A program made the position numbers and the translations under genes. Below the pieces are notes generated by a model. The model saw only the letters and a list, made by a program, of their open reading frames with translations, searched no databases and had not been told where the DNA came from. Below are positions 1,819-28,928 of a stretch of DNA of 32,000 nucleotides, piece after piece; the stretch's first letter is position 1; the number at the start of each line of letters is the position of its first letter. The stretch lies in NCBI RefSeq assembly GCF_001997385.1, contig NZ_CP019633.1, forward strand, positions 1,290,001-1,322,000, written 5' to 3'. This stretch comes from Sedimentisphaera cyanobacteriorum. Lineage in GTDB: Bacteria; Planctomycetota; Phycisphaerae; Sedimentisphaerales; Sedimentisphaeraceae.

Positions 1819-2718
1819 TTAAAACAAACGAGAATCTTCCTCTTTCCTCTGCTGTTTGTATTTATCAATCCTCTTTCTGCAGACATCAGCATATCCCTGA
1901 TCGACTTCATAGCCCACATACTTTCGATCTGTTTTCAACGCTGCCAATGCCGTTGTGCCGCTGCCCATGAAGGGGTCCAGTATAATATCCTCCTTATAAG
2001 AATACAGCTCTATAAGCCTTCTTGGGAGCTCTTCGGGAAACGGAGCGGGATGACCTACTCTTTTAGCTGATTCGGTATTCATATTCCATACAGATTTAGT
2101 CCATTCCATGAAATCTTCTTTGCTTATGGTGTTCTCTTTATCTTTCTTAGGCCTTTTAAAATCGCCTTTAGAAAAGACCAAAATATACTCATGAACATCC
2201 CTTAAAACAGGGTTAGAAGCTGATTTCCAACTGCCCCAAGCCATCGAAACTCCCGCTCCTGAGCCTTTGTTCCAGATTATCTCACCCCTCATTTTAAAGC
2301 CGATATCAAGCATAATCCGAGATATAAAATCTGACAGCGGGATATACGGCTTTCTGCCGATATTTGCAATATTCACGCAAGCGCGGCCGCCGTTAACCAG
2401 AACTCTGTAAGTTTCAGTGTAAACGTTTTTCAGCAAAGCAAGATACTCATCAAGGTCAAGATTATCATCGTAATCTTTAGATACATTGTACGGGGGAGAA
2501 GTTATCATCAAATGAAGCGAATTATCAGGAATCTCCTTCATATTTTGTGCATCAGCCTTTATCACTGTATTCAGCAGCTCCGAGGGAAACTCATTATCCG
2601 GTTCAGATGCGGAAGATTTGCTGAGATTTGAATAAATCTTGGAATTGTAAAACCCGCTTGAGTCGTGATTTATTCTTTTACTCGTTCCGAAAGAAGACGT
2701 TTTTGTACCTGAGCCCAT
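1819..2718 (-). CDS. Beta-class N4/N6 DNA methyltransferase (type II R-M, possibly m4C)
   Basis: The ORF track gives 1819-2760. I prefer ATG 2718 (MGSGTKT...) because GGGAGGA lies 8 nt upstream and it abuts the upstream stop (TAG, 2722-2720). The motif order is catalytic ITSPPYNV first and SAM-binding DPFMGSGTT near the C-terminus (PF01555-type layout). SPPY rather than DPPY is, from memory, more frequent in N4-cytosine enzymes. Confidence 0.85.
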   Translation of the reverse strand: MGSGTKTSSFGTSKRINHDSSGFYNSKIYSNLSKSSASEPDNEFPSELLNTVIKADAQNMKEIPDNSLHLMITSPPYNVSKDYDDNLDLDEYLALLKNVYTETYRVLVNGGRACVNIANIGRKPYIPLSDFISRIMLDIGFKMRGEIIWNKGSGAGVSMAWGSWKSASNPVLRDVHEYILVFSKGDFKRPKKDKENTISKEDFMEWTKSVWNMNTESAKRVGHPAPFPEELPRRLIELYSYKEDIILDPFMGSGTTALAALKTDRKYVGYEVDQGYADVCRKRIDKYKQQRKEEDSRLF

Positions 2719-2719
2719 A

Positions 2720-3358
2720 CTATTGATCCTCCCACATATCAAGCCAGCGTTTGTATGCATCGAACTCTAAGTTATTCTTATCCCATTGTACCTGTATTTC
2801 AAAAGTATTATCGTGTTCCAGTATTTCATTGAAGGCCTTAGATGATATTTGAACACCCCTTGGATTTGTACCTCTTTTAGGAAACTTTAGATAGTTATTG
2901 CATCCCAAATTTCCAAAAACTGATTTTTGAACTTCTACAGGAATATAGTAGAAAGAACCAGCATTATACCAGTTTATTCTGACAAAGATAATATCACAAA
3001 AAGGACGATAGCTTTCGCAAAATTCGCTCACTTTATCCCAATCAACAGTCCAAATCAGCTTAAAACCTGACTTCCCTCTGCCTGTTTGTGTTTTTATAGA
3101 AATTGGCTTTTTACATACCTCTACATCAACTTCTTTCTGGGTTATTGGGATGTCTGTCTTAACATTATCCCGACCGAATTTGTAAATAAGCATAGCAATG
3201 ATGATTCGCTCACGCAAAAAACCTACTTCCATCCCAATTTTTCCAGCACTTGAGCATTCCAATTCTGCTAGATGGAACATTGCCGGCAGTTTGCTTTTAA
3301 TCTTTTCTACAAGAGCTTCATCGGCTCTAATAGATTTTAGAACAGCGTTATCATCCAT
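2720..3358 (-). CDS. Putative type II restriction endonuclease (family not recognised)
   Basis: 212-aa ORF directly upstream of and co-oriented with the methyltransferase (1-nt gap). It shares the same roughly one-third GC. There is a possible PD-(D/E)XK-like stretch, TDIPITQKEVDVEVCKKPISIK. The call rests mainly on context. Confidence 0.5.
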   Translation of the reverse strand: MDDNAVLKSIRADEALVEKIKSKLPAMFHLAELECSSAGKIGMEVGFLRERIIIAMLIYKFGRDNVKTDIPITQKEVDVEVCKKPISIKTQTGRGKSGFKLIWTVDWDKVSEFCESYRPFCDIIFVRINWYNAGSFYYIPVEVQKSVFGNLGCNNYLKFPKRGTNPRGVQISSKAFNEILEHDNTFEIQVQWDKNNLEFDAYKRWLDMWEDQ

Positions 3359-5128: not shown

Positions 5129-5232
5129 ACGATAAAGTCCTGTAATAATATTAGCAATTTAATTCAACTTACCGGAAAGTAAATTATACCTATCAGGGAA
5201 AATTTTAAAAGCGTCTGGCTGGGAAACTTTCA

Positions 5233-5264
5233 CAAAAAAAGGCCTGCTCATATAGAGCAGACCT
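5233..5264 (-). terminator. Strong intrinsic terminator closing the PilMN operon
   Basis: Minus-strand hairpin AGGTCTGCTC-TATAT-GAGCAGGCCT (5240-5264, one mismatch), followed by TTTTTTT (A-run 5234-5240 on the plus strand). It lies 28 nt after the stop at 5292. Confidence 0.85.
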
Positions 5265-5291
5265 TAGGGTATTTTCAAATATAAATCATTA

Positions 5292-7211
5292 TTATCTTCC
5301 GGCACCGCCGAAGGGGTCAAAACCGGCGCCTCCGCCGAACGGATCGAAGCCGCCCTGTCCTTCGCCGCCTCGCTGCATGCCGCGGTTGAATCCGCCTGAG
5401 CGGGATTCCTTAACCGTGATATCACGCTCGGCCTTTGCGGTTATCGTTTTGTAGGCCTTTGTCATTGAAGAGCTCCAGTTGCGGTTTCTAATCGGAACAA
5501 CGTTCACCTGCTGATCCTGAATATATACCATACTCTCATACTGCTTTTCTACGAAGTTTCCAAGCAGAGACCAAGTGCTGGTATCGACAGTGTCCACATA
5601 AACAGCGCCTGTTGCATAATCAAACTCTTCAGGTTCAGTTTCTTCTTCCTCCTGCTGATCTCTCTGCCCGGGGCGACGGCGTCTATCGTCCTTCTTCTCT
5701 TCAACTAACCTTCCAACGCTCTCTCCCGGTTTAACAAAGAAATCATGCAGATGCCACTGACCGAGCTCAAGCTTTGCAACCTTGCAGAGCACTCCGTTGG
5801 TTTTGCCGTCTGAAGGGAATATATACTGATTTTTAAGTATATCGAAGGATTTTGTGGGTTCTGTAAAATCACTCCAGAGAACCACATCATCATTGTATTC
5901 GCTGTACTGCTCGCTGAGCCATTCTTTGCCTGCTACAGGATTAAACACTCCGCATCTCATTCTGTATCGATAGGTTTGCCCGGGCGAAACAGAGTCGTCA
6001 TGCGTCCAAACATTTATAACTCCGGAAAGCTCTTCGAGCTGCTGCCCCTCTTCTATGAGGAGCTTTTGATATTCTTCTTCCAAATCCACCTGCGGCCTTT
6101 GCGGAGTTTGCTCTTCCTGTCTTTCATCTCTTCTTCGCGTTCTTCTGTCGCGGTTTGTGTCCGGCTGATTCATACCCGGGTTGAAGCCTGCGCCGCCTCC
6201 GCCGCCTCCGCCAAACGGATCAAAGCCTCCGCCTCCGAGATCCTGCGTGTCTCTCTGAGGCCTTCTTCTTCTGTCTTCTCTTTCTTCACTTTCCTCCCTG
6301 CGCGATTCTCTGAGCTCTCTGAGCTCTTCGCGTCTTTGCATCTCAAGCTGCTTTTCATATTCATCATATAGCGACGGGGGATACCATTTCTGATCCACGA
6401 CTGCAATATCGTACATCTGCGGCTGGAGTGCATTTCTCCAAACATCCGAGGTTCTAAACTGCGGCATAAGCACATTAAGCTTATTTGCCGCCTCTACATC
6501 GTAAACCTGCTGTATAAGCTCTGCATACTTATCCACCTTAGGCCTTTCGACGGTTTGCCATTCGCTCCAGCCTGAGGCCGTAAGCACCTGCCTCTGCATT
6601 TCAATGCCTGCAAAAACAGGACTTGCAAGGGTTTGGTCTCGCCATTCGGCCTTGATGCCGCGTCCTGCGAAAGTTCTTTTAAAGCTTGCAAGCAGCTCTG
6701 AAATATCAAACTCTGCCTGAAGGGTAACAACGTCAATATCTCTCGGTTCTACTTCAGCCTGTGAATAATCATTTGCCGGCTCGAGCTTGCTGAGAGGCAT
6801 AAACCCAACCGTTCGCACCTTCTGTGCTGCAAGATTTGCAAGCTGCGGTATATCAGGCAGTCCATACTCCCTGTCTCCCTGAATTGCATCGAGCTCTGCA
6901 GCGGGCACTCCAATGGGCTGGAGGTCGAGCCCGCCTAAGCTGCTGTCCATCATAGATTTGAAATCATCCAGCTTAGCAGAATACTGCGGCTTGGGTTCGG
7001 GGGAGGATTCAAGTTTATTCTTAATAGCCTGAGTGTCCTCAAGTATTTCTCTGTCAACGTTTGCAGGGGAAACCTCCTGAGAACCATACTTTACGGCATT
7101 AGGCCCCATAATTACAAAATAGAGCAGTACCGCAAGTGAAAACAGCACCGAAACACCCAGCACTATCCAGTGTACAATACGTTCTATAGGACTTTCTTTA
7201 GATCTACTCAT
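5292..7211 (-). CDS. Hypothetical N-terminally anchored protein with R/E-rich and Gly-rich FDPFGG tracts (operon gene 3)
   Basis: 639 aa. A K/R-containing N-terminal stub is followed by a TM (IVHWIVLGVSVLFSLAVLLYFVIM). The charged block RREELRELRESRREESEEREDRRRRPQRD precedes GGGGFDPFGGGGGGGAGFNPG, and the C-terminus ends GGFDPFGGGAGFDPFGGAGR. I recognised no known domain. Confidence 0.8.
   Translation of the reverse strand: MSRSKESPIERIVHWIVLGVSVLFSLAVLLYFVIMGPNAVKYGSQEVSPANVDREILEDTQAIKNKLESSPEPKPQYSAKLDDFKSMMDSSLGGLDLQPIGVPAAELDAIQGDREYGLPDIPQLANLAAQKVRTVGFMPLSKLEPANDYSQAEVEPRDIDVVTLQAEFDISELLASFKRTFAGRGIKAEWRDQTLASPVFAGIEMQRQVLTASGWSEWQTVERPKVDKYAELIQQVYDVEAANKLNVLMPQFRTSDVWRNALQPQMYDIAVVDQKWYPPSLYDEYEKQLEMQRREELRELRESRREESEEREDRRRRPQRDTQDLGGGGFDPFGGGGGGGAGFNPGMNQPDTNRDRRTRRRDERQEEQTPQRPQVDLEEEYQKLLIEEGQQLEELSGVINVWTHDDSVSPGQTYRYRMRCGVFNPVAGKEWLSEQYSEYNDDVVLWSDFTEPTKSFDILKNQYIFPSDGKTNGVLCKVAKLELGQWHLHDFFVKPGESVGRLVEEKKDDRRRRPGQRDQQEEEETEPEEFDYATGAVYVDTVDTSTWSLLGNFVEKQYESMVYIQDQQVNVVPIRNRNWSSSMTKAYKTITAKAERDITVKESRSGGFNRGMQRGGEGQGGFDPFGGGAGFDPFGGAGR
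5295..5400 (-). repeat. Coding Gly-rich repeat tract (2x FDPFGG plus FNRG) at the C-terminus of gene 3
   Basis: The minus strand encodes SGGFNRGMQRGGEGQGGFDPFGGGAGFDPFGGAGR*. Confidence 0.9.
6171..6239 (-). repeat. Coding Gly-rich repeat tract (FDPFGG plus FNPG) in the middle of gene 3
   Basis: The minus strand encodes LGGGGFDPFGGGGGGGAGFNPGM. Confidence 0.9.
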
Positions 7212-7248
7212 TATCTCTTCCCGTTAATTCTAAGAGGGTTATTTCGTT

Positions 7249-8436
7249 TTAATCTTCTTCGCCCTGCATCTTTGTTTTAATGCTTTCAGGGATAATTTCT
7301 TCGTAAGCCTTGCGGGCAAAAATATACTCGCATGATGCAGTCCACTGAACTACAGATTTATCGCCGTATCTGTAGTATTCGTGTGCCCTTGCATCACGCA
7401 ATATCGGCATAGAACTCCAATCGAGTATTGTAATCTGATTGCCCTGATAGGTCTTTTCTTCCTGATTTCCGTCCCAGCCGTAAAACTTATGCATCTTTTC
7501 AGAACAGAGCTCTTCAACAAATTCCGGTATTTTGCTCTTCTCTATTACCACTGACACGCTGAAATGTATTACGTCCAGAGTTTCGTTATCGCCCACCCTG
7601 TTTGTAACAGAGCTTGCCACAAGAATGGGCTTGTTGTTTTCTGTAACGTAGTAAGGCTCGTCTATAATCTTGGATTTTCCTGCTCCCCTTGAAACGTAGT
7701 CAACATTGTCCGCCCTTTTCTGAAATCTCACAGCGAGCAGTCTTTTTAAGGGCGAGGCAAACACGCTCTGGGCATCTGCGTTGGCCGCTTTAACAGACTT
7801 AACTACATCCTGATACACCCATAAGGCAACCTGAGAATTCCAGCAGTCCTGAACCGCAATATTCTCCGATACAAACTCGTACTTATGCCAGAAATCGTAC
7901 CACGGAAAATTCCTCGGGTTCATATAAACCGGGTTGGAAGCAGCTTTGTTTCTGCAGAGGGCTTCAACAATCGGATCCTCGCCTTCTTCACTTCTTGACC
8001 TTCTCTCGCGGGCAGCCTTAACATTCTTTATTTCCTGCTCGCTGGGAGCATCAACCCCGCCGGCATTTTCCACCATCTTCTCAACGGCTGTCCTGTACTT
8101 TTTAGAGTAGTCCGTAAACAGCTGCCTTGAAGTGTCGTCGGGCTTAGGAAAAATCTGATAGCTTATCAGCTCTCTCATTGTGGTCTGAAGGAACATATTC
8201 TCTATAGTTGATGCGTCTTCTTCATGCATATTCTGATAGGAAGCCTCAACCCTATACTGCTCTTCAGAAGGCGTTTGAGAAGCTAATCTGCGAACCTGCG
8301 AACCCATTGAAACGCTGTCCTGCATATTGTCTTTCAAAGCAGAATTCGAAAGCCACGTAAGCACGAGTACAACAAGGCCTGCCAATGCGATAGCAGACGG
8401 TATTATTATAGTTAAATATCTTTTTAGGAAATTCAT
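7249..8436 (-). CDS. Hypothetical N-terminally anchored protein (operon gene 2)
   Basis: 395 aa with an N-terminal TM (YLTIIIPSAIALAGLVVLVLTWL); the remainder is not low-complexity. It lies 23 nt downstream of the PilMN gene, with CTGGAG 6 nt before the ATG. No family recognised. Confidence 0.8.
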   Translation of the reverse strand: MNFLKRYLTIIIPSAIALAGLVVLVLTWLSNSALKDNMQDSVSMGSQVRRLASQTPSEEQYRVEASYQNMHEEDASTIENMFLQTTMRELISYQIFPKPDDTSRQLFTDYSKKYRTAVEKMVENAGGVDAPSEQEIKNVKAARERRSRSEEGEDPIVEALCRNKAASNPVYMNPRNFPWYDFWHKYEFVSENIAVQDCWNSQVALWVYQDVVKSVKAANADAQSVFASPLKRLLAVRFQKRADNVDYVSRGAGKSKIIDEPYYVTENNKPILVASSVTNRVGDNETLDVIHFSVSVVIEKSKIPEFVEELCSEKMHKFYGWDGNQEEKTYQGNQITILDWSSMPILRDARAHEYYRYGDKSVVQWTASCEYIFARKAYEEIIPESIKTKMQGEED

Positions 8437-8459
8437 TAAATTCTCCAGCTAAGCATCTA

Positions 8460-10706
8460 TTATTCAGCGACCTCTGTCTCAGAGTCGGCTTCGGGGGCAT
8501 CCTTCCAAAGGAACTTGAACTTCAGCTTGAACCAATGGTCTCTTATAACATACTCTTTCTCGCTGTAGTCGTCGAATTGGATAACGCCGCTCTCGTCTGT
8601 CTTTACCACCTTACTCATCTCTTCCCCTGTAACAGGGTCAATGAGAACTGTTTCTTCTTCGAGTATATCTTGGCCGGCCTTTGCCTTGCTTTCTTCGGGG
8701 TCTAACCTCTCAACAGTTTTTTCAACGCCGATACCTACAGGCATTTCGCTGCTGTCTGGGGAAACCGGGCCTGTTTCATATTCAAAGTGATTCGAGGATT
8801 CCTTCTGGAAGAGCTCTATGTCATACCTTTCGAAAATTTCTTTGAAATTCTCAAGGCGTGTAACAAATCCCCATTTATCCTTGTTATCACCAACGCCGGC
8901 AGGGTCCATAATCTTGCCGATTTCGCTGTAAGGGGAATACCCTTCAATCACAACAACAAATCCTGGGCCGTCTTCTTCTGTTTCTTCTTCATCGGTTCTT
9001 TGCTCAGTATCCATACCGCCCATTCCGCCGACAGTTCCGCCGCCGCCGAAGGGGTCGAAGCCGCCTCCTCCGCCGCCGCCAAACGGATCGAAGCCGCCTC
9101 CTCCGCCAAAGGGGCTGGCAGTTCTGTCTGTTCCGCCTCGCTCGGTCTGCTTTCTTGTCTCAGAAAAAGCGGTTGTTTTTACGCTGTCTGTATAATCTAT
9201 AACGAGGCTCGATACAAATATCTGCTTTCTTTCAGAACGTGGAGTCTGCTTGACCTTTTCAATGTTGCCGTTTTTGAAAGCCTCATAAAGCTCGGCCTGC
9301 TCTGGGTTGTTCTCAGCATTCGGCATACAGAAGCCTATACCCTGAACAACAGAGGGTATAATATCCCTGTTGTCAAAGTAATCCATATACTTTGCTATTT
9401 TCTCTTCAAGCTTTTCATCCTTCTGCTTCTGCTCATCGAGTTTGCTGATAGCATCCTGAGCTCTGTCTATTACCGCTTTGACTTCTCTTCTTGTATCCTG
9501 ATTTGCGCTGTAAGCAATCTTGTCTGCCATGCTTTTCCCGAAGGCTGCAATACAGGCTAAAAGGAAGATAAAAGCTGCTGCATACATATAAACAGACTTC
9601 TGCTTCCAAGCCATAGACCTCGCTACGTTTGTAGGCAGAAGATTTGCATTTATCGGGGCTTTACCCAATGCCTGAAGGCCGATTCCGTAAGCCACGCTGT
9701 TGTCTAATATGTTTTGGTGGAAGCTTGCCGCAGAAACTCCCGACCCCAGCTTAACCTTCTTGAATTCGGTGGGCATAAACATCTTGATCCCGAGACTCTG
9801 CTGGAGATACTTTGCAAGCCCCTGGAGCTTAAAGCCTCCGCCAAGGCCTATCACACGAACAAAATCTACCTTGTGGGCATCAGAATAGTATCCAAGTGAT
9901 CTCTGTATCTCTTCTGAAAGTTCTGTGTAGGTGCGGCGCATCGCCTGGAATATCTGCTTGGCATACTTGCTGGACTGTGAATTCCTTTTGAGCTTTTCGG
10001 CCTTCGCAAAATCAATCTTGAATGCGTCTGCGACAGCTTCTGTAAAATCATTGCCGCCCATAGGTATGCATCTTTGCCATACCGAATTTCCGGAACATAC
10101 CACAAGGTTTGTATTGTCCGTTCCGATATCAAGCAGAACTATAGCCTTGCCTGGATTCTTGAGCACATCAGGGAATTCATAGGCGGCATAGTTATAGATA
10201 GCCATCGGAGCCATCTGAACATAATTAACACGAATGCCGGCTTCAGTGTAATGGGAAAGGATAGACTCAACCAGCTCATTCTTGATTGCAAAGATTCCAA
10301 TAGATGTGTCCGGGGAATCCTCCTCGCTCATCAGCTCGTAATCCCATTCAACTTCGTGTATGTCGAAAGGAATCTGCTGAGCGGCCTCATGCCTTACCAG
10401 CTTTGAAAGCTGCTTTTTATCTACAGGAGGAAGCTTTACGAACCTGGCAAAGCTTGTCTGCCCGGGTACTGATATCGCCACCTCTTCACCTCGAAGATCG
10501 TGCTTTGAGGCGAATTTCTTTATCGTTTCTGCCGCATACTGCTCTTTCTGCTCTTCGCCCACTTCAGGAGCGCTGAGCAGCTGCCTGTGCTCGATGAGTT
10601 CTGATTCAAGAACCTCAACGGTTTCGCCGTCTAACCTGAGATGCAGTGCCCTCAAGGCTCGACTGCCCACATCTAAAGCCCATACGTATTCGCTGCCAGA
10701 TGCCAT
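8460..10706 (-). CDS. PilM-PilN fusion protein with a Gly-rich linker and an extra C-terminal periplasmic domain (operon gene 1)
   Basis: 748 aa. Residues 1 to ~350 are a PilM/FtsA-type actin-fold ATPase (WALDVGSRALRAL, LLDIGTDNTNLVV, VIGLGGGFKLQGL). Next come the PilN N-terminal signature INANLLP, a TM (VYMYAAAFIFLLACIAAFG) and a coiled coil (ISKLDEQKQKDEKLEEKIAKY). After that come SPFGGGGGFDPFGGGGGGGFDPFGGGG, an acidic linker and ~240 aa of unassigned sequence. AAGGAG lies ~10 nt before the ATG. Confidence 0.85.
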   Translation of the reverse strand: MASGSEYVWALDVGSRALRALHLRLDGETVEVLESELIEHRQLLSAPEVGEEQKEQYAAETIKKFASKHDLRGEEVAISVPGQTSFARFVKLPPVDKKQLSKLVRHEAAQQIPFDIHEVEWDYELMSEEDSPDTSIGIFAIKNELVESILSHYTEAGIRVNYVQMAPMAIYNYAAYEFPDVLKNPGKAIVLLDIGTDNTNLVVCSGNSVWQRCIPMGGNDFTEAVADAFKIDFAKAEKLKRNSQSSKYAKQIFQAMRRTYTELSEEIQRSLGYYSDAHKVDFVRVIGLGGGFKLQGLAKYLQQSLGIKMFMPTEFKKVKLGSGVSAASFHQNILDNSVAYGIGLQALGKAPINANLLPTNVARSMAWKQKSVYMYAAAFIFLLACIAAFGKSMADKIAYSANQDTRREVKAVIDRAQDAISKLDEQKQKDEKLEEKIAKYMDYFDNRDIIPSVVQGIGFCMPNAENNPEQAELYEAFKNGNIEKVKQTPRSERKQIFVSSLVIDYTDSVKTTAFSETRKQTERGGTDRTASPFGGGGGFDPFGGGGGGGFDPFGGGGTVGGMGGMDTEQRTDEEETEEDGPGFVVVIEGYSPYSEIGKIMDPAGVGDNKDKWGFVTRLENFKEIFERYDIELFQKESSNHFEYETGPVSPDSSEMPVGIGVEKTVERLDPEESKAKAGQDILEEETVLIDPVTGEEMSKVVKTDESGVIQFDDYSEKEYVIRDHWFKLKFKFLWKDAPEADSETEVAE
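9012..9116 (-). repeat. Coding Gly-rich repeat tract (SPFGG plus 2x FDPFGG) in the PilMN fusion
   Basis: The minus strand encodes SPFGGGGGFDPFGGGGGGGFDPFGGGGTVGGMGGM. Confidence 0.9.
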
Positions 10707-10779
10707 ATATCACAGTCTCCTTGCCCGCCCTGAAAAAGCAGGGCTTGTTTTTGGTTACAATTTTTATATCTTCTGGAGT

Positions 10780-12057
10780 ATGGTAACATTTTATATAACT
10801 ACGCTGGGATGTAAAGTAAACCAGTACGAAAGTCAGCAAATTAGGCAATTTTTGCGGTCAAAAGGGCTCAGTCAGACGTTCAAACCCGATAATGCCGACA
10901 TTGCTGTGGTGAGAACCTGCTGCATAACCAAAAACGCCTCATCCAAGAGCAGGCAGGCGATAAAGCGAATACACAAAGCCAACCCCGAATGCGTTATTAT
11001 TGCCAACGGATGCCTTATAGATTCAAAAACTGAAGAGAAACCTGAGGAATTGAATAATCTTATTTTCCAAAGAAAAAATTATCCGCTTGAGCAGGTTTTA
11101 GAGCAGGTTTACGGAAAACTGAAAACAGACGAAAAAATTTTTGATATAGGGCTGAAAAACTACGGCCTGCAGACAAGGGCTTTTCTGAAAGTACAGGACG
11201 GCTGCGACGGCTTCTGCAGCTACTGCATAATACCGAAAATCAGGACTGAAATTTCATCAAAACCTTTAGACAATATCTTGAAAGAGTCTCGGGAGCTTGT
11301 GAATTCCGGACACAAGGAGATTGTGCTTACCGGTGTGTTCCTCGGGGCGTACGGGAAAGAAACCGTAAAGAGAAACCGTTGGAACGAGAGGGTAAACCGT
11401 GAATTTCTGGAGCTCGTGGATTCAGTTGCGCAGACCCCAGGGCTGGAAAGGCTCAGGCTCAGCTCTGTAGAGCCGGGCGATATAAGCGAAGAGCTGATGG
11501 AGATTTATAAGTGCCGCGGAAACCTTGCCCCGCATTTCCATATCTCGCTTCAGTCCGGCAGCAGCCGGGTCTTGAAGCTTATGAACAGGCAGTACAGCAG
11601 CGAAACCTTCCGGCATAAGATTGATCTAATAAAATCAAGCCTGCATAAGCCGGCAGTTACTACTGATTTGATTGCAGGTTTTCCGGGAGAAACTGAGGCG
11701 GATTTTGAGGATTCTTTAGCGATGTGCAGATATTGCGGCTTCTCGAAAATGCACGTTTTCAGCTATTCCTCGCGTTCTGGAACAGGCGCTGCAAATATGA
11801 AGGGCCATCTGCCCGCCGGGGTAATTAAGCAAAGAGCAGCGAAGCTCTCACAAACAGGCGATAAGCTTGCTGAGGAATTCCGGGATTCTCTTGTCGGAGA
11901 AGAAGCGGGAGTAATAATCGAAGATCAGGAAAACCAGAGCGGCAAGTGCGAGAGATATCTCGACATAAAACTCACTGAAGGCTGCTTTGAGAGAGGCAAG
12001 CTGGTGCGTTCAGAAATCCTGCCCGGCGGGAAAGAGGCAAAACCGCTCTTCGAATGA
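10780..12057 (+). CDS. mtaB: Radical-SAM methylthiotransferase, MtaB-like (tRNA ms2t6A)
   Basis: The ORF track starts this gene at 10594, inside the opposite-strand PilMN gene. The conserved N-terminus begins at ATG 10780 (MVTFYITTLGCKVNQYESQ). It has the radical-SAM motif CDGFCSYC and a TRAM-like C-terminus. I chose MtaB over MiaB/RimO by eye from the N-terminal pattern. Confidence 0.75.
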   Translation: MVTFYITTLGCKVNQYESQQIRQFLRSKGLSQTFKPDNADIAVVRTCCITKNASSKSRQAIKRIHKANPECVIIANGCLIDSKTEEKPEELNNLIFQRKNYPLEQVLEQVYGKLKTDEKIFDIGLKNYGLQTRAFLKVQDGCDGFCSYCIIPKIRTEISSKPLDNILKESRELVNSGHKEIVLTGVFLGAYGKETVKRNRWNERVNREFLELVDSVAQTPGLERLRLSSVEPGDISEELMEIYKCRGNLAPHFHISLQSGSSRVLKLMNRQYSSETFRHKIDLIKSSLHKPAVTTDLIAGFPGETEADFEDSLAMCRYCGFSKMHVFSYSSRSGTGAANMKGHLPAGVIKQRAAKLSQTGDKLAEEFRDSLVGEEAGVIIEDQENQSGKCERYLDIKLTEGCFERGKLVRSEILPGGKEAKPLFE

Positions 12058-12165: not shown

Positions 12166-13394
12166 TTATAGGTCAAAGTTAAAAGTACCAACAGCTCGGT
12201 GGAAATCGGACAGTGCTGTATAATAATCCCACCCGGCTTGTGCCCTGTTGCCTTCAGCCCTGACCAGGGCGGTACGGGCGTCGAGCAGATCGTTAGTGGT
12301 GGATTGTCCGACCTGATATCTTTCCTGTGTAAGTCTCATACCTTCCTGTGCTTCTTCTACAATAGTTTTTGTAGCTTCCAGTGCCTGATATGCCTCTTTC
12401 AGTTTTGCAAAGTCATTCCAAACCTGCTGTTTAACTTCGAGAATCAGGTTTTGCAGAAGCGCCTCTTGCTCGGAAAGCTGAGCCTTAGCATGCCTGACAT
12501 TGTTGTCTCTGGCAAAGCCGTCAAAAAGCGGCAGTTCTACGAAGATTCCGACCATCCAGCTGTCATCATTCGGGAAAAAACCGTCGTCCTGTCGGCCGTA
12601 GCTTGCCCTTGCCGAAACATCCGGACCGTATTCACTTTTTGCTGCCTTAATATTACTCTTTGCTGCTGATATCCTGTTTAAGGCTGCTTTTAGTTCGGGA
12701 CGCAGATATACGGCTTTCTGTAATGCTGAATAAAGACGTTTTTTCGTAGGCTCCTGAAAAGCTGGGTGCTGATCATTGATACTTACAGGTATTTCAGCAG
12801 GTAAACCCATTGACCTGTTTAGTTGTCCCTGTGCTATTCGAATCATTTTTTGTGTCCGCACAAGCGACAGATTAGCCTCTGAAACATCAACCTTTACTCG
12901 TAAGACTTCTGCCTGGGGGATCTGGCCTGCGCTGCGACGCTTTTGGGCGATTTCCAGATGATTTTCAGCTTTTCTTAGGTTTTGCTTCGCAATCTGATTG
13001 GCATCCTGTGCTGCCAGATAGCCGTAATATGCCCTGTGGACATTCTGGATAATATCCTGGCGAATTTCTCTGGCGGTTTGCTCGCTTGCCTGCTGCCGAA
13101 ATAAAGCAGACATGAGTTCGGCTCGACGTTTTCCGCTGTCATATAAACTATAGCGAAGATTTAAACTTGCCGTCCAGTCCTCGGTTGGTCCGACGGTGCT
13201 TGACATGCCTGGCCTGGTAACCCCCTCCGGCAGGAATATATGTCTTTCCCATCGGCTGTAACCGCCGGTCGCGTCAATCTGGGGGTAATAGGATGAACGT
13301 CTCAGGCCGACAATAGCTTTTGCTGCCGCAACACCTTCTGATGCCGCACGCTGAAGAGGATTTTTATCCAGCGCTATCGCCACACACTGATTAG
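12166..13394 (-). pseudogene. TolC/OprM-family outer-membrane efflux protein, 5' end removed by the IS5-family element
   Basis: 405-aa ORF with only a GTG 'start'. It has OEP-type repeats (ALDKNPLQRAA, YYPQIDATGGY, LPLFDGFARDNNVRHAKAQ). In-frame upstream codons read FSGATNQC before VAIALDKNP and hit a stop at 13425-13423. There is no signal peptide, and family members normally start ~25-35 aa earlier. Confidence 0.7.
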
Positions 13395-14924
13395 TCGCCC
13401 CTGAAAAAGTTTTAAATTTTCCTTAAATTCTTTTCTGATAATGGTTTATATGATTGAAAAGCTTTCGAGATATGGTATAATATTGCAAGTGTTTATCTTA
13501 CATCTATCAAAACATTGCAATATTGGGACAAAATAATGAAGGCAAAAAACAATAAAGCAGGCTTACTCTTTCAGCAGCCATTAAAACCTCTTGTAAATCC
13601 TGATCACTCTTTAGTCCAACTCTCAGAGGTTGTCAACTGGTCTCGCTTTGAAGAGAAGTTTGGCAGTTTATACAGTCCTGATTCAGGCAGGCCGGCCAAG
13701 CCGATTCGCCTGATGGTCGGCCTTCAGTATCTCAAGTACACTTTCAATCTCAGCGATGAAGCAATCGTTGCCGGCTGGGTTGAGAATCCTTACTGGCAGT
13801 ATTTCTGCGGCGAAAGATACTTCCAGTACGAGCCTCCTATTGATCCAACCAGTATGACTAAGTGGCGTAATAAGGTAAAATCTGATGGTCTTGAAGAGCT
13901 GCTCGAAGAAACTATCAAAGCCGGCTTGAAGCTTAAGGTTATCAAAAAGAACGATTTCAACAAGCTCGTTGCAGATACAACCGTTCAGCAGAAGAACATC
14001 ACTTATCCGACCGACGCAAAACTCTGCCACAAACTGCGCATTAAGCTTGTAGATCTTGCAAAAGCATCAAAACTCCAACTTCGCCAAAGCTACGAAAGGG
14101 TTGGAAAAAGGGCGTATGTAATGCAGGGCAGGTATCGACGTGCAAGACAGTTCAAAAGAGCTAAAAAAGAAGTGAAGAAATTAAGGAACTACCTGCGGCG
14201 AATTACGAAAGAGGTCGAGCGGAATATAGCAGGCAATGAGCAGTTAAGAATAATTTTTGATACATTGCTTCAAGCCGCTAAGAAGCTTTTAGCCCAGACA
14301 AAGAAAAGCAAAAATAAGCTCTACAGTATTCACGAACCTCACGTCTGCTGCATTGGGAAAGGCAAAAGCCACAAGAAATATGAGTTTGGAAATAAGGTTG
14401 GAATTGTAACTACTGCCAAGAATAATTTTATCGTAGGAGCGTTGGGCTTTGAAGGAAACCCTTATGATGGCCATACTCTTCGGGCTAATCTGAAGCAGAC
14501 AATGAATTTAATCGGGAGAGAAAAGCTTGGAGATGTTTATGTTGATGGAGGATACAAGAAACATGGCTGCGAAGATATTGGAAATGTTGAAATTGTAGAA
14601 AAGGGCTGGCGAAAAAAGAAACGAAGTATCAAGAGGTGGATTAAGAGAAGATCGAGCATAGAACCAACGATAGGCCACCTCAAAGAAGACAACAGGTTGG
14701 GAAGAAACTTCTTGAAAGGTGTAGAAGGGGACAAAATGAACGCCCTCGGCAGCGCTTTTGGGTACAATATGCGTAAACTTCTAAAGAAGTTTACTTTTGC
14801 CTATATTTTTATGCTTAAAATTATTGAATTTTACAGAAATTTGGCAATGAAAAGCAAATTAAAGACTCGATTAGCCTGATATATTTTTTTAGTTTCCCCA
14901 AAATCATTGATTTTTCAGGAACGA
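13395..14924 (+). mobile_element. IS5-family insertion sequence (~1.53 kb)
   Basis: A single transposase gene is flanked by imperfect terminal inverted repeats. The left end TCGCCCCTGAAAAAG (13395-13409) matches the reverse complement of the right end, TCGTTCCTGAAAAAT (14924-14910), at 12/15 positions. The flanks are TTAG (13391-13394) and CTAA (14925-14928). Ends are uncertain by a few bp. Confidence 0.7.
13536..14879 (+). CDS. IS5-family DDE transposase
   Basis: InsH/DUF772-type N-domain (GRPAKPIRLMVGLQYLKYTFNLSDEA) and a DDE C-domain (VADTTVQQKNITYPTD, VYVDGGY, SIEPTIGHLKEDNRLGRNFLKG). I prefer ATG 13536 to the TTG at 13515 used by the ORF track. Confidence 0.92.
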   Translation: MKAKNNKAGLLFQQPLKPLVNPDHSLVQLSEVVNWSRFEEKFGSLYSPDSGRPAKPIRLMVGLQYLKYTFNLSDEAIVAGWVENPYWQYFCGERYFQYEPPIDPTSMTKWRNKVKSDGLEELLEETIKAGLKLKVIKKNDFNKLVADTTVQQKNITYPTDAKLCHKLRIKLVDLAKASKLQLRQSYERVGKRAYVMQGRYRRARQFKRAKKEVKKLRNYLRRITKEVERNIAGNEQLRIIFDTLLQAAKKLLAQTKKSKNKLYSIHEPHVCCIGKGKSHKKYEFGNKVGIVTTAKNNFIVGALGFEGNPYDGHTLRANLKQTMNLIGREKLGDVYVDGGYKKHGCEDIGNVEIVEKGWRKKKRSIKRWIKRRSSIEPTIGHLKEDNRLGRNFLKGVEGDKMNALGSAFGYNMRKLLKKFTFAYIFMLKIIEFYRNLAMKSKLKTRLA

Positions 14925-14926
14925 CT

Positions 14927-15016
14927 AAATATATAGGAGAAAATGCCGTTGTTATTCTTAATGAATTTGGGCAAGTTGTAACAACATGGGCTACTTCTTC
15001 AAGTGCTTGGAGGTAA
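14927..15016 (+). pseudogene. 3' stub (~30 codons) of a toxin-like gene cut by the IS5-family element
   Basis: In frame with stop TAA 15014-15016 and 6 nt before the immunity ATG: KYIGENAVVILNEFGQVVTTWATSSSAWR*. It reads like the terminal beta-strands of a polymorphic-toxin C-terminal domain. Everything upstream is IS sequence. Confidence 0.45.
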
Positions 15017-15022
15017 TATAAG

Positions 15023-15454
15023 ATGGCAAATGTAAATATAATAGGTACAACTGGTGACAGTATCAATATGTTGATTTCCAGACGAACTTATCCGCAGGAG
15101 CAGGATAAATGGGATGGAAATTGGCTGAACACTCAAATTAAGATTAAAGTTGGGAGTTTCTCAGGGAAAACAGACGCATTATTGAGAAGCGATGAGTTTG
15201 AACAATTATCAAAAGCAATTGAACAGTTTCTTTATAAAAAAGTGGAGTCTGTAACATTTTCGCCTATGGAACCCTGGATATGTTTTAGGGCAACAAAAAA
15301 CCGAAAACAGAATATTGAGTTTGCTGGAGAGGTCACAGACCGTCTTGGAACTGGAAATATTCTAAAATTTCAACTTGAACTATCTCTGCCCGATCTTAAA
15401 AAAATACTTGAAGAGATAAATGCTGTACTACATGATTTTCCAGTAAAGCAGTAA
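15023..15454 (+). CDS. Polymorphic-toxin immunity protein, WapI-like
   Basis: 143 aa. The pattern RRTYPQEQDKWDGNWLNTQIKIKVGSFSG...LLRSDEFEQL...FSPMEPWICF matches my memory of WapI-family immunity proteins (YP..D.NWL, then EP.l.f). It sits immediately after a toxin-like 3' stub. It needs HMM confirmation. Confidence 0.5.
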   Translation: MANVNIIGTTGDSINMLISRRTYPQEQDKWDGNWLNTQIKIKVGSFSGKTDALLRSDEFEQLSKAIEQFLYKKVESVTFSPMEPWICFRATKNRKQNIEFAGEVTDRLGTGNILKFQLELSLPDLKKILEEINAVLHDFPVKQ

Positions 15455-15581
15455 AGGAATATTATGATAGGACATTACAAATGACACTTTGGGCTGTAGC
15501 TCTCCCATAGAATTGAACACTTTAAATTAGACGGTTCCTGAATAATATAAACCAACTCAAATATTTAGAAAGGAACTTAAA

Positions 15582-15848
15582 ATGCGAAGATCGAGGTTTA
15601 GTGAAAGCCAGATACTTTCGATTCTCAAGGAGTCAGAAGCCGGTTTAGAGGTCAGTGATTTGACCAGTAAATACGGCATATCCCGTGCCACATTTTACAA
15701 CTGGAAGAGCAAGTATTCTGGTATTGGCGGCAGTGAGATAAGGCGTTTACGCGAGTTAGAGCGAGAGAACGGCAAGCTCAAAAAGATGTATGCGGACTTA
15801 TCATTAGAGAATAACGTTCTCAAGGATTTAATAGAAAAAAACTTCTAA
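15582..15848 (+). CDS. IS3-family transposase OrfA (HTH)
   Basis: 88 aa with an HTH (SESQILSILKESEAGLEVSDLTSKYGISRATFYNWKSKY) and a leucine-zipper-like tail (LRELERENGKLKKMYADLSLENNVLKDL). Confidence 0.9.
   Translation: MRRSRFSESQILSILKESEAGLEVSDLTSKYGISRATFYNWKSKYSGIGGSEIRRLRELERENGKLKKMYADLSLENNVLKDLIEKNF
15836..15842 (+). other. Programmed -1 ribosomal frameshift heptamer, A AAA AAC
   Basis: The heptamer is in the orfA zero frame, just before the orfA stop. The -1 frame continues KKLLKPAERKDFARQAHSKGLCVQSSCKAAGISRGSFYY into orfB. Confidence 0.7.
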
Positions 15849-16725
15849 AGCCTGCCGAGCGAAAGGATTTTGCCAGGCAGGCACATTCTAAGGGCTTATG
15901 CGTGCAATCATCTTGTAAAGCAGCAGGCATCAGCCGGGGCAGTTTTTACTATACTCCTTCAAGAAACGATGATGCTGAGGTAAAAAGACAGATAGAGCTG
16001 GTAATAGATTCCCGTCCTCGACGCGGATTTCCAAAGATATTCGACAGTATCCGCCGCAAGGGATATAGCTGGAATCACAAAAAGGTTTATCGTGTTTATA
16101 AGGAAAATGAATTTCAGCTTAACAACCGTAAAAAGAATTTGATAAGGCAAATAGAGCGTAAACCTATGCCAGAAGCCACGAGAGCTAATGAGATATGGAG
16201 TATTGATTTTATGAGCGATAGTTTGAGTAATGGTCGGCCATTCAGGGCTTTCAACGTTATCGATGAGTTTAACCGTGAGGCATTGGATATTGAGATCGAC
16301 ACGAGCTTACCTTCGCTTCGCATAATTCGTAGCCTTGAATTAATAGGCTCTGATCGGGGTTTCCCCGCTTTATTCGCAGCGATAATGGGCCGGAATTTAG
16401 GAGCCTTCAATTTCGCAGGTTCTGCTGCCGAAACAGAATCAGGCACCGCCGTATAGAAGCAGGCAAGCCTCAGCAAAACAGTTTTATTGAACGATTCAAT
16501 CGGAGTTATCGAGAGGATATACTTGATATGTACAGTTTTAAGAATTTATCAGAAGCTCGTAATTTAACTTTAGATTGGCTTATAGAATATAATTATGAGC
16601 GTGGGCACGAATCACTGGGAGGGAAAGCTCCTGTAGAGTATGTCCGCAGTTTTTTGCCTTTCACCCCTCAAAATAATTCTGAAGGGGCAAAAGGAAAAAA
16701 CTGCTGTTTGAAGGAATTTGTCTAA
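15842..16725 (+). pseudogene. IS3-family transposase OrfB (rve/DDE integrase core), frame-broken
   Basis: The frame of 15902-16456 carries EIWSIDFMSDSLSNGRPFRAFNVIDEFNREALDIEID. The frame opening at 16354 carries FPRFIRSDNGPEF...IEAGKPQQNSFIERFNRSYREDILD...YNYERGHESLGGKAPVEY up to the stop at 16725. Joining the two needs a 1-nt indel within GGGGTTTCCCC (16356-16366). Confidence 0.8.
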
Positions 16726-25209: not shown

Positions 25210-26753
<1,544 letters not shown>

Positions 26754-27185: not shown

Positions 27186-28717
27186 TTAGACAATCTGCTT
27201 GGGGTATATGTTGTATTTTTTGATTTTGTAGCCCATCATCCTTTCTGTAAGCCCGAGCTGCTGGGCTGCCTTTCTCTGCTGGCCTCTGTTTTTCTTCAAG
27301 GCATCAACTATCATCTCCCTTTCGAAATTTTCCACCATCTCAGGCAGCGTTCTCCCCGGTGTTTTATGAGCTGCGGCCTCTTCAAACTGAAGCGAGGGGG
27401 GGAGGTGTTCACTTCGAATCACCTCTTCATTACAGAGCAGGACCGCCCTTTCAATGCAGTTTTCCAGCTCCCTTATATTCCCGGGCCAGTGGTAGCTTGT
27501 CAGCATATTGATAGCTGGGGTGGAAAGGCGTGTGATGTTTTTGCTGTTTTCTTTGCTGTATTTCTCAAGGAAGTAGTCTGCGAGGAGCATAATGTCATCC
27601 TTGCGTTCTCTGAGCGGTGGAAGGAAGATTGGGAAAACGTTGATCCTGTAGTATAGGTCTTCGCGGAAAACGCCGTTTTTGATATCTTCCTCGAGGTTGC
27701 GGTTTGTTGCAACTACAATTCGTACGTTTGTCTTTATTGTTTCGTTCCCTCCAACTCTCTCAAACTCCTTGAACTGTATTGCCCGAAGGAGCTTCACCTG
27801 AAGGTTCAGCGAGAAATCGCCAATCTCATCGAGGAATATTGTGCCTCCGTTTGCCCGTTCAAAGCGCCCGATTTTCCTGTCTGAAGCGCCTGTGAACGCC
27901 CTTTTTCATGCCCGAAAAGCTCGCTCTCCAGAAGCGATTCAGGAAGGGCTGTGCAATTTATCTTTATAAACGGCTTATCTGCTCTGAGGCTGCTGTAGTG
28001 GATTGCGTGGGCGATAAGGTCTTTACCTGTCCCGCTCTCGCCCCTTATCATAACAGTAGCATTGCTTTGGGCAACCTGCTCCACGAGACGGAAAACCTCC
28101 TGCATAGCGTTGCTCGAGCCTATCATATTGTGTATTTTGAAACGGTTTCTCAGCTGCTGACGAAGCTTGAGGTTTTCCTCCTGCCAGCCGCGTTTCTCCT
28201 TTGTGTAGAGGTCGTTTATCTTAACTGCCTGGCCAACCATCGTTGCTATAACGTTCAGGATTCTTGCGTCGTTTTGAAGGCTTTTTCCAGAGCTGGTTTC
28301 CTTGCTAACGCTCATCGCGCCGGCAGTTTTGCCTTCAACCTTTATCGGAACGCAGATAAATGCCATCTTCTTGTCTTCCTTAGGTTTTCTCTCGCCCGCT
28401 TTGGCGAGGAAGCGTTTGTCCTTCTGGATATCAGGCACAATCACCGGCTCGCCTGACTGATAAACTATGCCTGTTATCCCCTCACCCTCTCGGTATTCAA
28501 TCTGCTTTTGCAGCTCTGAATCAATATTATGAGCGACGGCTATTTTTATAGTTTCAGAATCAGGATCGAGCAGATTTATAGTTCCCATCTGAAGCGCCAT
28601 ATGCACCTCAAGGGCCTCGAGCACGCCTGCGAGTGTTCGTTTGAGTTCCAGCGATTCGGCAAGGGCTCGGGCTATACGGCTGAGCAGCTCGGTTTCGTGA
28701 ATCCGTCTGTAAGGCAT
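27186..28717 (-). pseudogene. GAF-domain sigma-54-dependent transcriptional activator (NifA-like architecture), split by a 1-nt frame break
   Basis: The upstream ORF holds a GAF domain and the start of the AAA+ domain ([29 protein letters not shown]). The downstream frame continues exactly with [42 protein letters not shown], then has the GAFTGA-type loop, [19 protein letters not shown] and a Fis-type HTH ([21 protein letters not shown]). The break lies in CCCTTTTT (27899-27906). The start ATG at 28717 has GAAGGAG 5 nt upstream. This could be a sequencing error rather than real decay. Confidence 0.85.
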
Positions 28718-28928
28718 AAAAGCTCCTTCACTTATTGAAATTGCAATTGGGTTTTTGAGTAAGCCTTTATCACCTAATCTATACAAATATGTAATTAGTT
28801 CAATTAAAAAATACTTTTTTGTTTATTGTTTTAATGAAAAATTCAAATTTAGCTCTTTTAATATATACTCTGCTTATGTATAATAAAAATTCAAAAACAG
28901 ATTCAATTTTTAAGCTGTCCGGCAAGGT

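Follow-up and report, generated by a model that had tools for sequence, protein, structure and literature searches.

What is an operon built around a PilM-PilN-type fusion doing in a stretch of genome that holds no other pilus or secretion gene? The question is raised by three genes, here called g1, g2 and g3, in 32,000 nucleotides (nt) of Sedimentisphaera cyanobacteriorum DNA (contig NZ_CP019633.1, positions 1,290,001 to 1,322,000), hereafter the window, whose first letter is position 1 of all coordinates given below. The reading we prefer, and to which we give roughly even chances, is that the trio encodes a three-subunit scaffold reaching from the inner membrane into the periplasm, of the alignment or assembly-platform type, and that it is the planctomycete counterpart of the Amuc_1101/Amuc_1100 module found in the MUL2 locus of Akkermansia. 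On this reading, the trio is a version of a PilMN/PilO-like module of the Planctomycetes-Verrucomicrobia-Chlamydiae (PVC) bacteria, present throughout the Phycisphaerae, unlinked to pilin or secretin genes and equipped with a novel third subunit. By the tests available, we are not dealing with an ordinary pilus locus that has been split, and the linked extension ATPase, platform, prepilin and secretin genes of a canonical type IV pilus or type II secretion system (T2SS) locus do not accompany it. The three genes are as follows.

8460-10706, minus strand: g1, open reading frame (ORF) of 748 amino acids (aa), PilM-PilN-type fusion, Amuc_1101-like homologue
7249-8436, minus strand: g2, ORF of 395 aa, bitopic, predicted PilO/Amuc_1100-like fold
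5292-7211, minus strand: g3, ORF of 639 aa, bitopic, matching no known family

The gaps between them measure 23 nt (g1/g2, 8437-8459) and 37 nt (g2/g3, 7212-7248), and a Shine-Dalgarno (SD)-like sequence stands ahead of all three ATG codons (AAGGAGA for g1, GGAG for g2 and GGGAAGAG for g3). The SD and start context of g1 show no variation among four divergent loci. An earlier note on this DNA had already described three co-oriented genes with these gaps and SD-like sites, and the ORF coordinates and start contexts bear it out.

The strongest evidence comes from g1, whose product is laid out in this way.

9672-10706, minus strand: cytoplasmic PilM actin-fold domain, residues 1-345 (Pfam match 11-345), compared with PilM structures 3jc8, 2ych and 5eox
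9633-9653, minus strand: INANLLP motif, residues 352-358, the N-terminal PilM-binding signature of PilN, here in cis
9531-9599, minus strand: single transmembrane (TM) helix, residues about 370-392, from hydropathy
9162-9524, minus strand: periplasmic coiled coil (residues 395-445) and first conserved segment (446-515), from conservation and the Amuc_1101 alignment
8967-9161, minus strand: Gly-rich, low-complexity, disordered linker, residues about 516-580, with GGGGFDPFGGGG repeats
8487-8966, minus strand: conserved C-terminal periplasmic domain, residues 581-740, from conservation

Curated PilM thresholds are passed over the whole actin-fold domain: PF11104 (PilM_2) matches residues 11-345 at 7e-35 (120.9 bits, cutoff 27), TIGR01175 pilM scores 146.6 bits (above its cutoff of 133), and the PilM structure 3jc8 is matched in the PDB at 1e-25. 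Across 69 sequences the majority identity of this domain is 0.6-0.86. Concerning the nucleotide-binding residues, D12 is kept in 66 of the 69 homologues and G14, G195, G289 and G290 in all of them, and the acidic phosphate-2 position 193 is occupied by N in 40 and by D in 29. These actin-fold motifs would fit nucleotide binding, hydrolysis being uncertain. The INANLLP motif starts seven residues past the PilM domain and aligns with the RINLLP peptide of PilN in the engineered PilM:PilN fusion structure 5eou; among the 69 homologues, 67-69 retain its I352, N355, L356, L357 and P358. It is followed by the TM helix, the sole Kyte-Doolittle window above 1.6, and by the coiled coil, so that the PilN order of INLLP-type motif, one TM helix and coiled coil is present. 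Judged by its sequence, g1 is a naturally occurring fusion of the PilM-PilN type, GspL-like in its topology, and the earlier description of gene 1 in these terms, Gly-rich linker included, is upheld by PF11104, TIGR01175, INANLLP and the one TM helix.

The periplasmic part of g1 amounts to some 350 residues in total. Conservation is 0.4-0.7 in residues 395-515, and majority identity is 0.5-0.7 in residues 581-740, for which no Pfam, PDB or Amuc_1101 match was obtained; a PDB profile search with the whole periplasmic part came back empty. The linker between these segments has a fixed position in the 69 homologues, a length of 25-86 aa and a variable sequence. FDPFGGGG repeats were considered as a conserved functional motif and rejected, FG-type repeats being found in only 3-5 homologues. 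Profile-profile comparison among the domains of g1, g2 and g3 gave no internal paralogy, a PilN/PilO-type duplication being undetectable by this means.

The nearest named relative of g1 is Amuc_1101. NF045709, the family model of this PilM-like pilus complex protein, matches g1 residues 7-458 at E 1e-73 (249 bits), with positions 6-458 of the 608 in the model aligned and the equivalog cutoff of 650 bits missed. BLASTP gave 27% identity over 487 aa (E 1e-39), to about residue 524, and hhalign a probability of 99.9 (58-456 vs. 54-460). The homology extends from the PilM domain through the INANLLP/LNIDLEP segment, the TM helix and the coiled coil; the C-terminal periplasmic parts of the two proteins are unrelated. 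On these comparisons g1 is a homologue, not an equivalog, of Amuc_1101. The Akkermansia locus used here (L085) was taken from gut metagenomes. Amuc_1098-1102 defines MUL2, a locus with an important part in acquiring mucin (bioRxiv 10.64898/2025.12.30.696933), the locus being given as amuc_1099-1102 in PMC13174399; the cluster is conserved in Verrucomicrobiales, and its Amuc_1100 protein has been described as PilO/PilN-like (PMC5332112; PMC13174399; bioRxiv 10.64898/2025.12.30.696933; PMC12928651).

As for g2, its relationship is visible in the predicted fold. The AlphaFold2 (AF2) model, built from a 15-sequence alignment (pLDDT 72.5, pTM 0.66), has an N-terminal TM helix, long helices and a C-terminal alpha/beta domain, and in a Foldseek search of the PDB the top matches were Amuc_1100 structures (6lad, 6kny and 6laf; probability 0.97-0.99, E 3e-3 to 1e-2), followed by PilO (2rjz and 5uvr; probability 0.93-0.94). 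Amuc_1100 itself is medically prominent as the immunomodulatory protein of Akkermansia. The PilO-type topology, that is an N-terminal TM helix, coiled-coil helices and a C-terminal alpha/beta core, is moderately well reproduced in the predicted model. Searches of g2 against the PDB by sequence and by profile gave no match. We take g2 to be PilO/Amuc_1100-like by modelled fold, topology and gene position, membership of either family not being demonstrable. A weak match to Pfam DUF7690 was also seen at g2 residues 181-228 (window about 7753-7896), in 5 of the 15 family members and below the cutoff (best E 0.0043).

The third protein has no such relatives. In an AF2 model based on 17 sequences (pLDDT 73.7), g3 is divided as follows, all of it encoded on the minus strand.

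Residues about 9-41: TM helix
Residues about 118-280: alpha/beta domain
Residues 279-316: charged helix
Residues about 317-375 (window 6087-6263, minus strand): Gly-rich disordered spacer
Residues 398-600: two beta-sandwich domains, holding an invariant WxHDD...YRYRxRxGVFNPxAG block
Window 5295-5414, minus strand: Gly-rich disordered C-terminal tail

NCBIfam and PDB searches with g3, by sequence and by profile, were empty, and Foldseek against the PDB returned just generic tandem Ig/Fn3 folds (probability of at most 0.16). No relation to Amuc_1098, Amuc_1100 or Amuc_1102 was found when the g3 family was compared with them by hhalign. Membership of the PilP or GspC families was not found; the modelled combination of a TM helix and beta-sandwiches is nonetheless compatible with a PilP/GspC-like role, and is no proof of membership. 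The family is a large one: an exhaustive profile search, with clusters at 50% identity, gave 2758 clusters at E<=1e-3, 2040 at E<=1e-10 and 514 at E<=1e-30. The best 150 matches listed are all close family members, and among the matches listed every named member is 'hypothetical'. The earlier note had credited genes 2 and 3 with a single N-terminal TM helix each, and hydropathy confirms one hydrophobic helix, N-terminal, in both. It had also called the two genes unrecognisable, which stands for g3, to which nothing could be assigned, and falls for g2, whose predicted fold is nearest to Amuc_1100 and PilO. The profile searches that it had proposed recognised PilM in g1 and neither PilO, PilP nor any other known family in g2 and g3.

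The operon is closed and flanked by the following elements.

5231-5265, minus strand: intrinsic-terminator-like hairpin and T-run closing the operon, from a scan of the region
10707-10815, minus strand: leader and promoter region of g1, shared with the divergent mtaB, with the SD AAGGAGA, a hairpin and sigma70-like hexamers
10780-12057, plus strand: mtaB (radical-SAM methylthiotransferase), divergent neighbour of g1

The terminator hairpin (5265-5239) begins 26 nt past the g3 stop codon and is GC-rich, with a 5-nt loop closed by a stem of 11 bp, 6 of them GC pairs, and with TTTTTTTGTG following. No other site of this type in the scanned region is as strong, and the hairpin placed at 5233-5264 by the earlier note lies within 1-6 nt of this one. 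The divergent mtaB of that note is equally where it was said to be, with its ATG at 10780 and 73 nt between the two start codons, and in relatives the mtaB product carries the Pfam domains UPF0004 and Radical_SAM. A sigma70-like TTTACA-16-TAAAAT (10815-10788), a consensus match only, falls within the first mtaB codons and was dropped as evidence for a promoter, its hexamers sitting in conserved mtaB coding sequence. Between the divergent starts, just 5' of the g1 SD, a hairpin rich in GC was noticed at 10727-10744 (GCCCTG-N6-CAGGGC), flanked by a T-run. The same sequence is present in Sedimentisphaera salicampi, and another locus (L003) has a hairpin of other sequence (CCTGATA-TGC-TATCAGG) at this position. 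It may be a leader or attenuator element of g1 or mtaB.

Is the arrangement itself maintained? In S. salicampi, also of the Phycisphaerae and the nearest relative with a sequenced genome, g2 and g3 have hypothetical proteins as counterparts, with 95% and 92% identity, respectively. The only part of the window that aligns with the chromosome of this species (L165, CP021023.1) is 5234-12038, at 87% nt identity; the common block consists of exactly mtaB, the trio and the terminator, and the flanks differ on both sides. The block formed by mtaB and the trio acts as a tight syntenic island amid rearranged surroundings. A scan of one genome per GTDB species yielded 228 genomes that encode a g3 relative; almost all of them bear the label Phycisphaerae, Sedimentisphaerales, Anaerohalosphaeraceae, Phycisphaerales or Planctomycetota, and many the unverified label 'uncultured Pirellulales'. 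For the neighbourhoods, ORFs were called in 84 fetched loci, within ±10 kb of the matches, and searched with family profiles. The order g1-like, g2-like, g3-like on one strand was found in every locus with enough upstream sequence (about 80), which answers in the affirmative the earlier question whether the trio is a conserved syntenic unit, and a g2-like gene still precedes the g3-like gene in the most divergent relative (L166, E 3e-11). A three-gene order that recurs in this way is not a matter of chance, and throughout the Phycisphaerae the trio is passed on as a unit. In 62 loci the gene immediately upstream of g1 is a divergent mtaB, at a median distance of 79 nt; as far as shown, mtaB is a conserved neighbour and not a functional part of the operon. 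Other neighbours vary and are housekeeping genes, such as those for S-adenosylhomocysteine hydrolase, DNA ligase, a DEAD helicase and a GGDEF protein. No earlier description of the Phycisphaerae trio was found in the literature on PilM in Planctomycetota and Phycisphaerae.

Two neighbourhoods deserve separate mention. A glycoside hydrolase family 2 (GH2, beta-mannosidase-like) gene follows g3 convergently in 29 loci (including L001, L011 and L066), at a median of 24 nt from the stop codon, and sulfatase or glycoside hydrolase family 3 genes are close to some of the GH2-bearing loci. Functional linkage was rejected, the gene being convergent and present in only 29 loci, and the adjacency may reflect synteny within a subclade rather than a functional link. 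In S. salicampi, mreB-mreC-mreD is found some 3 kb away from the block, and just past mtaB there is also a Gp49/HTH toxin-antitoxin pair; a linkage to mreBCD was likewise rejected, the genes being absent from the other 84 loci.

A possible further sign that g1 and g3 belong together is found in their disordered segments. Residues 516-580 of g1 and residues 317-375 plus the tail of g3 share a lineage-specific composition, FDPFGGGG in this window and GMPGMPGM or GGMDMPGG in other lineages. Over 67 loci, the centred composition vectors of these segments had a mean cosine of 0.35 vs. 0±0.04 in permuted data, a value that is inflated by common descent and that a mutational bias common to both segments might also explain; it was never attained in 5000 permutations, and the folded-domain control gave 0.10. 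The covariation may reflect co-evolution and fits with both proteins acting in one periplasmic assembly.

From these elements the following mechanism can be proposed. The PilM domain of g1 would clamp its own INxNLLP segment in cis, and the coiled coils and core domains of g1 and g2 would pair as those of PilN and PilO do. A PilP/GspC-like role would fall to g3, bridging the periplasm to peptidoglycan or to an outer-membrane component, with its disordered spacers giving variable reach. If the trio has a motor ATPase, a platform protein, a filament subunit or an outer-membrane channel as partner, the gene for it would have to lie elsewhere. Because of the analogy with MUL2 and of the polysaccharide-degrading lifestyle of the Phycisphaerae, our leading guess at the function is the assembly of a surface fibre or the capture and transport of macromolecules such as glycans.

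Several results weigh against this proposal. A Pfam scan of all ORFs of at least 150 aa in the window detected no pilin, ATPase, platform or secretin domain, and across some 80 related loci the conserved neighbours of the trio within ±10 kb include no gene for a pilus or for secretion; the earlier statement that the 32 kb contain no such genes is therefore correct and extends beyond the window. No prepilin motif occurs in any of its six frames. The Planctomycetota metagenome-assembled genome L066 has, besides the trio and 7.5 kb downstream of it, a separate cluster (L066 14865-20579, minus strand) encoding a 380-aa PilM, an unassigned 218-aa ORF, T2SSM_b, a ParA-like AAA_31 ATPase, a 287-aa ORF and a secretin, so that the trio is there an additional system coexisting with a PilM cluster of canonical type. 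PF05137 (PilN) matches neither g1 at E<=1 nor 35 periplasmic segments at E<=10. The fold match of g2 is moderate to borderline (E about 3e-3, target TM-score 0.43-0.51, root-mean-square deviation 9-14 Å); g2 and 15 family members gave no PilO, T2SSM or Amuc_1100 match in Pfam or NCBIfam, and hhalign of g2 against Amuc_1100, whose query sequence was verified against the PDB, gave a probability of 0.3-0.5, i.e. no sequence-level relation; nor did hhalign connect the g2 family with Amuc_1098, Amuc_1099 or Amuc_1102. With g3 and 17 family members nothing was matched in Pfam, including the PilP and GspC families and PDZ; its N-terminal region has no Cys, and hence no lipobox, and hhalign finds it unrelated to Amuc_1099 (probability 0.1-0.2). 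Finally, the subunit interactions of the trio are all inferred.

How, then, do other explanations compare? One of them, which we regard as rather unlikely, is an autonomous scaffold organising the envelope or cell division in Phycisphaerae that lack FtsZ and FtsA, needing no pilus components; septal or peripheral peptidoglycan synthesis, membrane-to-wall tethering and spacing of the periplasm would be possible roles. FtsZ is missing from planctomycetes and FtsA from most of them, and binary fission is the way in which Phycisphaerae divide (PMC12673574, PMC8882080). The class-wide trio stays fixed beside a housekeeping gene as its flanks reshuffle even between congeners, the PilM domain of g1 is unusually conserved, no pilus gene is conserved beside it, one genome (L066) possesses its own canonical PilM cluster, and mreBCD is near the block in S. 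salicampi. Yet g1 scores as a PilM and not as an FtsA: the FtsA, MreB and GspL models all stay far under their cutoffs (33.1 bits for TIGR01174 FtsA, cutoff 175.85; E 0.13 for NF007009), and FtsA membership is not found. Moreover, the nearest named relative of g1 sits in a pilus-like locus with a secretin, mreBCD is missing beside the trio elsewhere, and across some 80 loci the dcw (division and cell wall) genes are not among the conserved neighbours within ±10 kb. The missing pilus neighbourhood is itself weak evidence, because planctomycete genomes commonly scatter functionally linked genes. The cell-division idea, which the earlier note had offered as speculation, has no positive or direct support but retains some probability. 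The earlier note had envisaged a role other than a canonical pilus; the lack of linked pilus genes agrees with this, but the kinship with Amuc_1101, in a locus that has a pilin-like gene and a secretin, makes a filament-like trans-envelope machine with unlinked partners likelier than a non-pilus role. Less probable again is a self-sufficient, class-wide envelope machine of the Phycisphaerae, uncoupled from pilus biogenesis, in which a PilM-type ATP-binding module would be wired across the membrane to two periplasmic proteins and lineage-matched Gly-rich segments would span or organise the periplasm, in the service of FtsZ/FtsA-independent fission and wall synthesis or of macromolecule import independent of pilin and secretin.

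[quoted passage not shown] The topology of g1 is that of GspL, g3 is bitopic like GspC and not a lipoprotein like PilP, a convergent GH2 gene stands just past g3 in 29 loci, and Sedimentisphaerales are rich in secreted hydrolases (PMC11131199). The T2SSL match of g1 is weak, however (E 0.0018; 18.2 bits, under the cutoff of 25.5), TIGR01709 gspL reaches E 0.12, and the nucleotide-binding and INxNLLP motifs of g1 are typical of PilM/PilN and not of GspL; neither g2 nor g3 matches T2SSM or T2SSC, and no gsp genes are linked. That the trio might be the decaying, functionless remnant of a former pilMNOPQ-type locus hardly deserves credence and is effectively refuted by conservation. Pilin and secretin genes present in the related Akkermansia locus are indeed missing here, and the window does hold insertion sequence (IS) elements and a split sigma54 activator gene. 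Against this, the three ORFs are intact, their order and length are kept in about 80 loci with many invariant positions, g3 has relatives in 228 species and 514 clusters at E<=1e-30, and the SD sites, start context and terminator, the last lying within the block common to the window and S. salicampi, are conserved as well. Conservation of ORFs, order, length and signals points to purifying selection, and the scaffold related to the Amuc_1101/Amuc_1100 module is the reading that we retain.

The rest of the window is given for completeness. In the Pfam scan, its other genes encode an ECF sigma factor, the restriction-modification pair described below, pgi, a TolC-like protein, transposases, CBM9, AraC, PIG-L, PFK, SIS, EndoIII, a Macro-domain protein, a sigma54 activator and GSIII. 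The following features were looked at more closely.

1819-3358, minus strand: type II restriction-modification pair, in which the gene of a ThaI-family endonuclease (6e-79) overlaps that of an N4/N6 DNA methyltransferase
12166-16456: region with a TolC-like outer-membrane efflux ORF, a DDE transposase (13515-14879) and an IS3-like HTH_21/rve fragment (15902-16456)
25210-26747, plus strand: complete 16S rRNA gene (Rfam 1457 bits)
27186-28786, minus strand: sigma54-dependent activator (GAF, AAA+ and HTH_8), split into 27806-28786 and 27186-27797 in different frames

The TolC-like ORF has a GTG start and no obvious signal peptide, and it abuts the transposase and the IS3-like fragment. Because of this start and the adjoining transposases, an IS-mediated disruption or rearrangement beside the conserved mtaB-trio block is suggested. 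No tRNA was found in the window, nor any 23S match in the window-wide Rfam scan, and a minus-strand ORF starts about 440 nt past the 16S rRNA gene. An unlinked rrs of this kind is a frequent sight in Planctomycetota. At the junction of the sigma54 activator some 22 positions of the Sigma54_activat model are missing, the split being due to a frameshift or pseudogene or to a sequencing error.

As a whole, the trio extends the Amuc_1101/Amuc_1100-type module from Verrucomicrobiota to Planctomycetota, and the combination of a PilM-PilN fusion with a PilO-like partner looks like an ancient PVC building block able to exist without linked pilin or secretin. In addition, g3 defines a large and wholly unannotated family (at least 514 clusters at 50% identity) that is always encoded beside this module. 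A class-wide, strongly conserved, membrane-spanning actin-fold scaffold would be a candidate either for binary fission without FtsZ and FtsA or for the degradation of complex polysaccharides, in which Phycisphaerae have a major part.

It remains to set the trio beside the known systems. The alignment or assembly-platform subcomplex consists of PilM-PilN-PilO-PilP in type IVa pili and of GspL-GspM-GspC in T2SS. With the type IVa pili of Pseudomonas, Myxococcus and Thermus, the trio has in common a PilM domain above the family thresholds, the PilN-type INLLP motif with TM helix and coiled coil, a second subunit with a PilO-like predicted fold, and the order M, N, O-like, then a fourth periplasmic protein. 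It differs in having PilM and PilN on one polypeptide, in giving no Pfam signal for PilN, PilO or PilP, in its third protein being bitopic and 639 aa long instead of a small lipoprotein, and in being neither followed by pilQ nor linked to pilB, pilC or pilin genes. The likeness to T2SS lies in the single chain of g1 (cytoplasmic actin-like domain, TM helix and periplasmic domain, as in GspL), in a bitopic, ferredoxin-like partner and in a bitopic, beta-rich g3 recalling GspC, whereas the T2SSL and gspL scores of g1 are sub-threshold, g1 retains the PilM nucleotide-binding glycines and the PilN motif, and g3 matches neither GspC families nor PDZ and has no gsp context. FtsA shares with g1 the actin-fold superfamily and attachment to the membrane, together with a weak Pfam FtsA match (1.9e-12) confined to residues 190-313; PilM models, in contrast, score g1 far higher than does TIGR01174, its anchor is a true TM helix with a large periplasmic extension and not an amphipathic helix, and conserved dcw neighbours are lacking.

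The closest parallel is the MUL2 locus, with which the gene-by-gene correspondence is as follows.

Upstream: in Akkermansia Amuc_1102, pilin-like, 242 aa; in the window no counterpart (mtaB, divergent)
First: Amuc_1101, PilM-TM fusion, 612 aa; g1, 748 aa
Second: Amuc_1100, bitopic, 317 aa; g2, 395 aa
Third: Amuc_1099, bitopic with N-terminal TM helix, 337 aa; g3, 639 aa
Downstream: Amuc_1098, secretin, 907 aa; in the window the terminator

The two loci differ in that the window has no Amuc_1102-like gene upstream and no secretin gene downstream, in that g2 has no sequence similarity to Amuc_1100 and g3 is unrelated to the shorter Amuc_1099, and in the periplasmic part of g1, which is some 140 aa longer, its Gly-rich linker and C-terminal domain not being found in Amuc_1101. 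They agree in that Amuc_1101-1100-1099 is collinear with g1-g2-g3, in that the best PDB matches of the g2 model are the Amuc_1100 structures, and in that both hosts are PVC bacteria degrading glycans.

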